Assembly: GCA_963848135.1 (NCBI GenBank)
Contig: CAWKCK010000002.1
Span: 1-64,000 of the forward strand
DNA from: an uncultured delta proteobacterium
Lineage (GTDB): Bacteria; Desulfobacterota; Desulfobacteria; Desulfobacterales; SG8-13
DNA length: 64,000 bases
Reading direction: 5' to 3'
Part shown: in pieces, positions 54,001-57,000 of the stretch
How the letters are laid out: every line of letters begins with the position of its first letter
Position numbering within the stretch: position 1 is the first letter of the stretch
Position numbers: made by a program

Positions 54001-57000
54001 CTTGCCGCTGCGGATGGCGTCACTCATAAAATCATTGAAAACCAGTTCGGCCTCATGAGCCGTAAAACCGTGAAGGTCGATATGGGCTTGAATAGAATAT
54101 TTCCCACCGTGAAGGGCCCGGGTGGTTATGGGGTGGACATTGTGTCCGAGACCCTCACGATATTCCGGGGTATGGGCGACGACAAATCCTTCACCGGTGC
54201 GCACGAGTCTGTCCAAACGTCGCAACGTGTCGCAATCGTTATTTCGCCTGCGTTGACCGAATGAAATCAGATTGCCGGGAGAGGGCGGACCGTGTTTGTC
54301 CTGAACAATCGGGGCGACGTTTTTCATGGCAGTACGGAACAGTTTGCGGTCCTGCTCCGGATCTGACGGGTATTCCCCCGCAGCGACAGTGGGGTGGGGC
54401 GGGTCGTCGTAAACCGGGAGGGCCGTTTTTTTGATGAGCCGTTCCAGGTGGCGGAAAGGGCGGTGGGCGAAAGGTTTTTTGTGCCGGGTCATGATGCAGC
54501 CGTTCCCCTCGGTGGCGTTCGGTTGCCAATACCGGATTAACCGGGTTTTTCAGCCGATACTCGAAACCATTCTTCAGGTGACCATCGAACGAAAGAATGG
54601 TCGTCAACTATATTTTTAACAATTCCCTGGGAACGAATCAAGCCCTCGTTAACCATTTTTCAGCGACGATTGACCGAACCGCTTAACCATAATATAAACG
54701 AACCATTCAATAAGATAAGCAATCAGCGTTGAATTCTTTCGATGAATAACACCGATCTCAGGCGGCACACGATTGTGACTCCGGCGGTTATTTGCAGCGG
54801 TGACACCGTCGACCTTTTGTCTTGATTTTTGCGCCACGAGAGACAGGTGATGCGTGTAAACGGAGAAAAAATATGGATCTTGATCGGTATTGTCCCCAAA
54901 AATTTGTTTCTGCTGAAGAAGCTGTGTCCAGAATTCGGAACGGTAGCCGCGTTTTTATCGGAACCGGGTGCGGGGAGCCGCAGCACCTGATCGAGGCCAT
55001 GGTGGCCAACAGGCGCCTGCACGATATTATGATTTACCAGATGCTTTCGCACACCCTGGCCCGCTATGTCGATGAGCCCACTTTTCTGAGCCGTTTTTCC
55101 CTTAAATTGTTTTTTGTCAGTGTCTCGATGCGTAAGGCCGCCTTTGAGGGTAAGCTCGATTATCTCCCGGCCTACCTTTCCCAGATCCCGCGGCTCTTTG
55201 CCAGCCACCGCATCGGACTTGATGTGGCCATGATTCAGGTCAGCCCGCCGGACAAATTCGGGTATTGCAGCCTGGGTGTCGCGGTCGATATCACTCGCTC
55301 CGGAATGGAGAATGCCGAGATGGTCATTGCCCAGGTCAATTCGCGGATGCCCAGAACATGGGGTGATAGTTTTGTCCATGTGGATGACATCGACTACCTG
55401 GTCGTGCACGAAGAACCGCTGGTTGAAAGACGGGTCGAAGCAAAAGACATCGAGGTCGTTCGGCGTATCGGGCATTACGTTTCACAATTGGTCGATGATG
55501 GATCAACCCTGCAGGTCGGTTTCGGGCGGGTGCCCAATGCCATATTAAAATACCTGGAAAACAAGAACGATCTTGGTCTTCACACTCAGGTGATAACCGA
55601 TGGATTATTACCGCTGTTCGAGACCAAGGTCATCACGAACAAAAAAAAGAGCCTTTTGCCCGGCCGGGCGGTGGCATCACTGTGCATGGGATCCGAGGAT
55701 CTTTACGGCTATGTTGACAACAATCCTATTTTTTATTTTCGGTCTTCTGAATTCGTCAACGATCCCACTGTCATTGCGCGTAACGACAACCTCGTCTCGA
55801 TCAGTTCGGCCCTCGAGGTTGATCTCACCGGACAGGTCTGCTCTGATTCCAAGGGTTACATGGTTTACAGCGGCATCGGTGACCAGGTCGATTTTATCAG
55901 AGGCAGTGCCATGTCGAAAGGCGGTTTTTCCATCATTGCCCTGCCGTCAACGGCGCAGAATGGAAATGTTTCCCGCATCGTTTCCCACTTGAGCGAAGGG
56001 GCAGGGGTGGCGACCACTCGCGGTGATGTGAATTTCGTTGTCACCGAGTACGGCATCGCCGAGCTTAAAGGCAAAGGAATCTACCAAAGAGTCATGGAGC
56101 TGGCGCAAATTGCACACCCTAAATTTCGGGAACAACTGATTGAGGCCGCCAAAGAACATCGTTACATATTTGCCGACCAACTGCCGCCGTCACGCGAGGA
56201 TCTATTGTTTCTGGAAAACTACAAAAGCGCGCTGACGGTAAGAAATGGAAAAACTATCGAATTCCGTCCGCTGCTGCCTTCCGACGAGTTCGCCTATCGC
56301 AACTTTTTTTATTCACTGCAGGAAAAGACAATTTATCTGCGGTTTTTTCATAGCAAGCGTCTGTTTACACACGAGATGCTGCAGCGCCAATGGTCCCACA
56401 TCGACTATCGAAAAAACACATCGATTATCGGTCTGACACAAAAGGGCGGGCACAAAGAGATTATCGCTATCGGGTCATACGCAAAGGAATCCGAGCGGAG
56501 GGCGGAGGTTGCTTTCGTTGTCAGGGAAGACTACCAGGGTCAGGGGATTGCCTCTTACCTGCTGGGCGTTCTGGAACAAATCGCCAGAGAGAACCAATAC
56601 ACCGCATTTTTTGCCAATGTATTGAGTGAGAACACCGCCATGTTGAGTGTTTTCAAAAAAAGGTATCCGCATATGAAAACCACTGCCTATGACGGCAGCG
56701 AAATGTCTTTTGAAATGGTTTTCGACCCTCCCGCCGGCTGAGGCCTTCTCCGCCCCAGAGCGATCGGTGGATTTGACGGGACGTTGGAACAAAACGATAC
56801 GACTATTTCCACCGCCGACCGGCGCCTTCACTGGATAAACGGATTGTAAAAAAACGTTCTGTTATTGGAACTTTTTTTTCTGCAATCCCTTATACCTTCC
56901 GCCCGTATTTCTGAATTTATTTTTGTAAAGCGTTATAATCAGAAGGCCGGTCTGAGATAACATCATATTTTTTTCTTTGGTTTTGGCTTGTTATCTCCAC

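Follow-up and report, generated by a model that had tools for sequence, protein, structure and literature searches.

What might a protein do that joins a CoA-transferase fold without its catalytic glutamate to an acetyltransferase domain? The question is raised by a gene at 54873..56741 (+ strand) of the window, the stretch of 64,000 nucleotides analysed here from an uncultured delta proteobacterium of the Desulfobacterales (contig CAWKCK010000002.1). The gene encodes, in an intact open reading frame, a protein of 622 amino acids (P0001), which was modelled with AlphaFold (mean pLDDT 91.5, pTM 0.88, 78-row alignment). The genome-wide survey's note had described a Cat2-type CoA-transferase domain followed by a C-terminal GNAT of the Pat type, and Pfam (AcetylCoA_hydro at residues 8-184, AcetylCoA_hyd_C at 273-426 and GNAT at 463-596) and the PDB matches bear this out. 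Residues 8-426 (54894..56150, + strand; PF02550 and PF13336) are predicted to adopt the two-domain alpha/beta fold of Cat2/4-hydroxybutyrate-type family I CoA-transferases, with an rmsd of 1.6-2.3 Å to Cat2 structures (2oas, Foldseek E 5.8e-50, rmsd 1.6 Å). As had been claimed, the PDB matches of this N-domain are 4-hydroxybutyrate CoA-transferases, whose HTE/HSE is aligned to HTQ in P0001, and those of the GNAT domain include 4oll, 4nxy, 9isq and 4ava. None of the NCBIfam curated models reaches its own cut-off on the fusion (243 bits on TIGR03948, cut-off 675; 67 bits on NF058543, cut-off 460). The near relatives that carry names belong to Desulfobacterales and other deltaproteobacteria.

Two separate mappings locate the missing residue. 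The conserved catalytic Glu of RipA is Glu249, and its loop is Gly226-Val-Gly228 (PMC3180442, partial text); a constant offset leads from these to Glu238 of 3gk7 and to Gln239 and G216-F-G218 of P0001. The AarC active-site residues Glu294, Asn347 and Gly388 (PMC4876117, partial text) were mapped via E. coli ScpC to Gln239, Asn296 and Asp337. Both routes agree that the absent Glu is the true nucleophile position, as the earlier note had held. Judged by these alignments, P0001 has lost the family I residue that forms the glutamyl-CoA thioester and carries Gln239 (CAG, 55587..55589, + strand) instead. The orienting Asn is kept as Asn296 (55758..55760, + strand; the equivalent of AarC Asn347 in the internal oxyanion hole; present in 29/30 orthologous loci), and Asp337 (GAC, 55881..55883, + strand) stands in the place of AarC Gly388 in the external oxyanion hole, where its backbone NH could still serve. 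S311, considered as the equivalent of AarC Asn347, was ruled out, as the alignment puts N296 there. P0001 shares Q214, the G-x-G loop and N296 with the Cat2/4-hydroxybutyrate and butyryl-CoA:acetate CoA-transferases (3gk7, 2oas, RipA and Thermus CoAT 9vag) and with AarC, but differs from them in the Glu to Gln change, the Gly388 to Asp change and the fused GNAT. Thermus CoAT is itself the target of a GNAT that is separate and unfused (bioRxiv 10.1101/2025.10.31.685773, partial text).

Gln239 is present in all 30 orthologous loci (CAG in 28 and CAA in 2), and among the nearest 120 proteins position 239 is Gln in 113 and His in 7. Asp337 was found in 30/30 loci and in 120/120 of the nearest proteins; stand-alone CoA-transferases have Gly at this position in 58/58 cases. 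The residues Q214, G216, G218, T238, S333-G336, Q338 and D340 are likewise invariant in the 30 loci of the window lineage. A sequencing error or a decaying pseudogene was ruled out by the occurrence of Gln in 30/30 loci, the open frames and a dN/dS of about 0.14.

The GNAT domain (about residues 454-600; 56232..56672, + strand) is of the Pat type and, to judge from its sequence, retains the catalytic and CoA-binding residues; here the earlier assignment stands. Its closest solved structures are MsPat, SlPatA, the PatZ-type 9isq/9it0 and MtPat (E 1.7e-12 to 3.9e-10), and the best 9 of 14 PDB matches are Pat-type or protein acetyltransferases; unrelated small-molecule GNATs have E-values of 0.1 or worse. 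The best NCBIfam GNAT model for the fusion is also a Pat protein acetyltransferase. The GNAT domains of P0001 and E. coli PatZ match each other reciprocally, and the latter, searched against the genome, matches only five fusion genes (5 matches, 12 candidates scored), which are the only PatZ-like GNATs of this genome. The segments YxRFF and DY are common to the fusions, PatZ and class I Pat. Glu545 of the AEVAF segment (56505..56507, + strand) aligns with the E-to-A site of 4onu and is the proposed Pat catalytic base; motif A (Q-G-Q-G-I-A; 56535..56552, + strand), recognised from its sequence and the motif definition in PMC8556138 (partial text), would form the acetyl-CoA pyrophosphate loop. 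The same source gives MsPat E234 as the Pat catalytic Glu and describes PatZ and SePat as not strictly dependent on this residue. Across 78 aligned fusions (41 with the transferase Glu and 37 without it), D471 and N587 are found in 78/78, R490 in 76 and an acid at 545 in 74, and these residues are kept with or without the transferase Glu.

The note's count of five Cat2-type homologues, all fused to a GNAT and with Glu replaced by Gln (four) or Pro (one), was borne out by the genome search: the genome (98.65% complete) has exactly five, all of them fused and free of stops, with HTQ, HSQ, HTQ, HSQ and HSP at the catalytic position. According to the trees, these represent three lineages and not five independent events. 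The first is that of the window copy, whose sister is a fusion that still bears Glu (L025, SH-aLRT 99); a second Gln lineage unites three copies, and the Pro copy belongs to a third. AU tests (23-row subset, LG+G4, groups named after earlier trees had been seen) rejected both a single origin of the five Glu-less copies (p 9e-19) and the union of the two Gln lineages in one group (p 3e-9). With strict cut-offs, the window, second Gln and Pro lineages were detected in 101, 109 and 78 of the 151 genomes of the order. Over the 30 best loci per lineage, the window lineage has Q239 in 30 and D337 in 30, the second Gln lineage has Q239 in 27, M239 in 3 and G337 in 30, and the Pro lineage has P239 in 28 and E/D337 in 29. 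The Pro lineage no longer has most of the canonical pocket residues, Q214, G216 and N296 among them. Purifying selection acts on both domains (median dN/dS 0.14-0.25, from 15-42 unsaturated of 435 pairs per lineage); in the window lineage the median is 0.14 (42 unsaturated of 435 pairs) and conservation reaches 81% in the N-domain vs. 74% in the GNAT. The transferase domain has been remodelled, not left to decay.

The family is large, with at least 8000 matches (8000/8000 candidates scored), a mix that may include stand-alone enzymes. The two-domain match was present in at least 113/301 genomes of the phylum, which is similar in size to the 15/41 reported earlier. From the best 150 of 14713 representatives (50% identity clusters, E up to 0.001), full-length N-domains were kept (68 fused and 58 stand-alone), and 24 partial or otherwise fused rows were dropped. 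Glu was kept in 40/68 fused clusters vs. 46/58 stand-alone ones (Fisher p 0.02, rows non-independent). The former proportion is similar to the earlier 12/22 foreign fusions with Glu, and Glu loss is therefore no hallmark of the family. Equally, the earlier observation that 4/4 stand-alones keep Glu does not hold as a general rule, as 12/58 stand-alones lack it. These 12 (11 with Gly and one with a gap) fall into one or two groups, and the 28 fused clusters without Glu carry twelve different substitute residues. The minimum number of changes at the Glu site was 15 in the fused vs. 2 in the stand-alone clusters on the IQ-TREE tree, and 19 vs. 1 on the FastTree tree (p 0.002 against tree length); these counts are rough, as deep branches are weak and 59/129 supports are under 80. 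An independent-pairs test of fusion against Glu loss had only 4 pairs, because fusion arose few times, and is uninformative.

The rest of the active site follows a graded pattern. The Glu/Asn/Gly triad is intact in 23/68 fusions vs. 44/58 stand-alones, so some fusions may be bifunctional; true bifunctional enzymes may be found, by their sequence, among the 17/40 Glu-keeping fusions that have all six canonical active-site residues checked. Over 11 active-site columns, a set chosen in part after an earlier survey result had been seen, conservation was 0.96 in Glu-bearing stand-alones, 0.73 in Glu-keeping fusions and 0.48 in Glu-less fusions, and over 51 other conserved columns it was 0.94, 0.90 and 0.86 in the same three groups. 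Mean identity in the GNAT is alike in Glu-keeping and Glu-less fusions (0.31 and 0.30), and in the N-domain it drops from 0.41 to 0.37.

Two survey representatives from different branches carry, in addition, a C-terminal HDAC (deacetylase) domain. Triple fusions of CoA-transferase, GNAT and HDAC make up 79 of the 120 listed relatives of one of the proteins, P0167; those with names are Verrucomicrobia (Rubritalea, Haloferula and Coraliomargarita). All 79 have Gly239, Ala/Ser337 (no acid) and the GNAT Glu, and the HDAC catalytic residues are present in 78-79 of them. The 79 triple fusions are one clade and not 79 events.

The reading that we somewhat favour is that P0001 acylates protein lysines as a Pat-type enzyme and senses acyl-CoA through its N-domain, a pseudo-enzyme. 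Unable to run the Glu-based ping-pong reaction, the N-domain would have been retained as a regulatory domain that binds acyl-CoA or CoA. Acyl-CoA would bind there without turnover, Gln being isosteric with Glu, and its binding would switch the GNAT. The GNAT would then acylate metabolic enzymes on lysines; the likeliest target would be the terminal lysine of AMP-forming acyl-CoA ligases, so that abundant acyl-CoA would slow acid activation. Deacetylases or sirtuins would undo the acylation. The genome has two strong HDAC-family genes plus weaker matches, and two sirtuins. The ligands sensed or the pathways served probably differ among the three lineages. The two folds, the loss of the nucleophile, the intact GNAT site and the selection on the pocket are read from sequence, and from it we infer the ligand binding of the N-domain, the allostery and the protein substrates. 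The Glu-less domain is under purifying selection and its pocket is near-invariant, which fits a ligand sensor. The E294A variant of AarC is inactive yet binds CoA (PMC4876117, partial text).

On this proposal the fusion would work in the manner of type I-III Pat, with a sensor that is not among theirs. Type I/II Pat (E. coli PatZ, S. enterica Pat and S. lividans PatA) have the same GNAT subtype as P0001 and an accessory domain that is an acyl-CoA-handling enzyme without its catalytic residue, and in type I the GNAT is C-terminal. Their inactive acyl-CoA synthetase domain binds acetyl-CoA (PMC8556138, partial text). They differ in that the accessory domain is an NDP-forming synthetase of about 700 aa, whereas the fusion has a family I CoA-transferase of about 430 aa; an NDP-forming acyl-CoA synthetase-like domain is absent from P0001, in which Pfam gives CoA-transferase domains only. 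In the fusion family, moreover, inactivation is not universal and arose repeatedly. In type III Pat (cAMP-GNAT MsPat/MtPat, ACT-GNAT and NADP-GNAT MxKat) a Pat GNAT follows an N-terminal ligand-type domain, a layout that fits P0001 with its putative regulatory N-domain, and by alignment the AEVAF Glu of the fusion corresponds to MsPat E234, but the candidate sensor of the fusion is not a cNMP, ACT or NADP Rossmann domain. As a dead acyl-CoA enzyme already serves as sensor in the type I/II design, the note's new acetyltransferase class is better described as a new sensor domain in a known design. Its acyl-CoA-sensing pseudo-enzyme is favoured by the Pat GNAT and the selection on the pocket, but not as a family-wide feature, given the incomplete loss of Glu, and the label pseudo-enzyme is itself open to doubt in the window and Pro lineages, which have a conserved acid at 337.

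That acid bears on the main alternative, which we consider unlikely, namely that the N-domain is still an enzyme. Either Asp337 (in the Pro lineage, Glu337) would stand in for the lost Glu as base or nucleophile, or Gln239 would be deamidated to Glu, and the N-domain would be a CoA-transferase or hydrolase that makes or removes acyl-CoA for the attached lysine acyltransferase. Reportedly, the Glu54 to Gln mutant of glutaconate CoA-transferase deamidates itself. An acid at 337 occurs in 4/15 fused clusters with a non-acidic residue at 239, in 1/13 with Asp239, in 0/40 with Glu239 and in 0/58 stand-alones (4/15 vs. 0/40, Fisher p 0.004, rows non-independent); Asp337 is invariant in the window lineage and Glu/Asp337 is found in 29/30 Pro-lineage loci. 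In AarC, Gly388 touches the Glu294 carboxylate (PMC4876117, partial text). IpdAB offers a precedent for reuse: this family I fold without the catalytic Glu shows no transferase activity, and its annotation is that of a hydrolase acting on CoA thioesters (PMC5380842, partial text). It is a two-subunit glutaconate-type protein of steroid catabolism and has no GNAT. Against this alternative, the second Gln lineage has Gly337 in 30/30 loci and Met239 in 3/30, and the window lineage has His239 in 7/120 proteins, a residue that cannot deamidate. The Verrucomicrobial branch has an acid at neither 239 nor 337 in 119/119 proteins, and an acid at 337 may be merely tolerated after Glu loss.

It is quite improbable that, with the GNAT acylating proteins, the N-domain is a scaffold for oligomerisation or substrate docking, or binds a free acid or other metabolite. 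The accessory domains of type I/II Pat act also via oligomerisation and structural integrity (PMC8556138, partial text), the Pro lineage lacks most canonical pocket residues, and the position of AarC Lys408, which contacts the CoA 3'-phosphate, is by alignment Gln in 27/30 window orthologues; the invariance of the window-lineage pocket in 30/30 loci, however, exceeds what a scaffold needs. Very unlikely is an N-acylation of a small amine, e.g. a polyamine, that would buffer or discard acyl-CoA and make the fused deacetylase an acetylpolyamine amidohydrolase: sequence gives no certain answer on GNAT substrates, polyamine deacetylases are found among the bacterial Zn deacetylases, and a role as acetyl buffers has been proposed for polyamines (PMC8556138, partial text), but the closest structures and best NCBIfam model are Pat protein acetyltransferases, small-molecule GNATs match far more poorly, and the YxRFF and DY segments are those of PatZ and class I Pat.

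Lysines of AMP-forming acyl-CoA synthetases are the typical protein targets of Pat enzymes. The window gene has Smr and EF-G upstream on the opposite strand and a roadblock/small-GTPase pair downstream; no metabolic neighbours were found beside it, and a promoter and terminator scan gave nothing informative. In orthologous loci rsmG lies 3' of the gene in 21/30, and EF-G and Smr are also usual neighbours. An AMP-ligase gene adjoins the fusion in 10/29 phylum loci; these ten span 5 families, one of which supplies six, and within 1.5 kb flanks at order level it was found in 0/29, 2/29 and 0/29 loci of the three lineages (0/29 in the window lineage). The genome has 18 long AMP-ligase ORFs, 12 of which bear PX4GK, which we take to be the target-lysine motif of AMP-forming acyl-CoA ligases, close to where the ligase domain ends; two of the adjoining ligase types are without the terminal PX4GK. 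Among Glu-keeping fusions, one directly adjoins an acetyl-CoA synthetase and four lie downstream of a same-strand ADP-forming synthetase-like gene. Of the other copies in this genome, that on C18 is separated by 10 bp from a downstream acsV-like gene, behind which come acetyl-CoA synthase subunits, and that on C5 lies between pyruvate:ferredoxin oxidoreductase and a class III phaEC. The acsV-like gene is directly downstream in 24/30 loci of its lineage, so Wood-Ljungdahl flux may be under acetylation control. A cNMP gene beside the Pro copy was considered as a sensor in trans and dropped, since similar genes occur in only 2/30 Pro-lineage loci.

The pairing of domains is already named in databases, as 'bifunctional acetyl-CoA hydrolase/transferase family protein/GNAT family N-acetyltransferase' and in similar JGI names. 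This label is automatic and assumes two activities, and neither the lost Glu nor the Pat subtype is part of it. In agreement with the survey's note, no study of the fusion was found in a full-text search of the main texts of mostly non-subscription papers, though proteomics tables may list these proteins; the accessible parts of PMC7888143, PMC2996986 and PMC13101534 contain nothing on it. The accessory domain is the basis on which bacterial protein acetyltransferases have been divided into five types, and a CoA-transferase domain is listed for none of them in the accessible part of the source (PMC8556138). By its sequence, P0001 falls outside types I-III on account of its accessory domain and outside the active CoA-transferases on account of its Glu loss. 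The fusion is a real, widespread and uncharacterised variant of the Pat design.

A wider picture can be drawn only tentatively, and we think it rather doubtful as a whole. The fusions would be a large further type of bacterial lysine acyltransferase that is common in Desulfobacterota and whose CoA-transferase domain was repeatedly turned from acyl-CoA supplier to sensor. Paralogues with remodelled pockets would differ in the acyl-CoAs that they sense and in the pathways that they govern (acyl-CoA ligases, the acetyl-CoA synthase/CO dehydrogenase operon and PHA synthesis), and the Verrucomicrobial branch would combine sensor, writer and eraser in a single chain. If this were true, the fusions would be candidate writers of many acyl-lysine types in anaerobic degraders of fatty acids and benzoate. 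The acyl-proteome of a syntroph comprises seven acyl-lysine types, the regulation of which is described as not understood (PMC8942843, partial text), and for syntroph acyl-lysines the fusions are specific writer candidates. Metabolic models that count them as working butyrate/4-hydroxybutyrate CoA-transferases would need correction.

Many relatives, two of them from the same genus, have a class I Pat of about 900 aa in addition to the fusion, and the idea that the fusion replaces class I Pat is unsupported, as both co-occur. A search for longer fused forms of 1090-3110 aa gave 1 match in 6738 candidates, without a GNAT. An apparent extra N-terminal domain in one protein (L052) proved to be a GC-rich open frame that precedes the true start. 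Split genes were suspected in four matches of family f22 flagged with an internal TAA; three of the four were examined and are intact fusions.

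The fusion gene of the window (54873..56741, plus strand; P0001) is followed at 57167..58244 by a Roadblock/LC7 gene and then a small GTPase gene, a pair that we take to be MglB/MglA-like. A roadblock gene adjoined the fusion in 7 of the best 30 loci orthologous to the window copy. Genes for a Smr-domain protein, EF-G and an AAA_25 ATPase (50444..54492) lie on the minus strand and are transcribed divergently from it, and a Smr gene was found near the fusion again in 10 of the same 30 loci.

The surroundings of other copies in the source genome (G000) were also analysed. The Gln/Gly-type copy (in locus L007, G000:C18:642500-651304) is followed after 10 bp by an acsV-like gene and then by genes for subunits of acetyl-CoA synthase/CODH, and the acsV-like gene adjoined this type of fusion in 24/30 orthologous loci (the best 30). 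Downstream of the C5 copy (in locus L008, G000:C5:604000-619500) are the genes of a class III PHA synthase, phaEC, together with an SDR gene; upstream of it are genes for PFOR, malate/lactate dehydrogenase and the beta subunit of oxaloacetate decarboxylase. A separate cNMP-binding gene (L009:8765-9250) lies immediately upstream of the Pro-type copy, and this neighbourhood was not conserved. Elsewhere, at G000:C3:715557-716648, a match to an AMP-binding ligase is split into several pieces with internal stops and is probably a pseudogene.

In four loci (L047, L048, L049 and L057), an ADP-forming acyl-CoA synthetase-like gene directly precedes a fusion that keeps the catalytic Glu. The catalytic-His motif was present in the synthetase-like gene of L057; the sequence pattern used did not find it in those of L047-L049. 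In P0249 and P0272, the CoA-transferase domain is itself joined to synthetase domains, and these joins and the preceding synthetase-like genes may mark an origin from a class I Pat locus. Three loci (L050 in G179, L051 in G289 and L063 in G264) carry tandem fusions with the Glu kept, in three copies, two of the three being nearly identical within a locus. CoA-transferases keeping the Glu were also joined to a response-regulator receiver, enoyl-CoA hydratase or periplasmic binding domain (P0192, P0231 and P0248).

Twelve stand-alone Cat2-like proteins (P0205, P0207, P0213, P0222, P0226, P0233, P0235, P0239, P0250, P0252, P0257 and P0270) form a further putative non-canonical CoA-transferase group: the catalytic Glu is replaced by Gly in 11 of the 12, and the Asn347 position (AarC numbering) is His in 11/12.

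Two fusions (P0133 and P0134) harbour an additional N-terminal 4Fe-4S dicluster domain, a possible redox input, and their catalytic position is occupied by Val or Gln. In P0167, P0273-P0350 and P0163, the domain order is CoA-transferase-like, GNAT and HDAC. The GNAT and HDAC sites are intact in these proteins and the transferase Glu is absent; each may combine writer and eraser in one chain. Named sources of the triple fusions were mostly Verrucomicrobia; P0163 represents a distinct branch, with Asp at the transferase Glu site.
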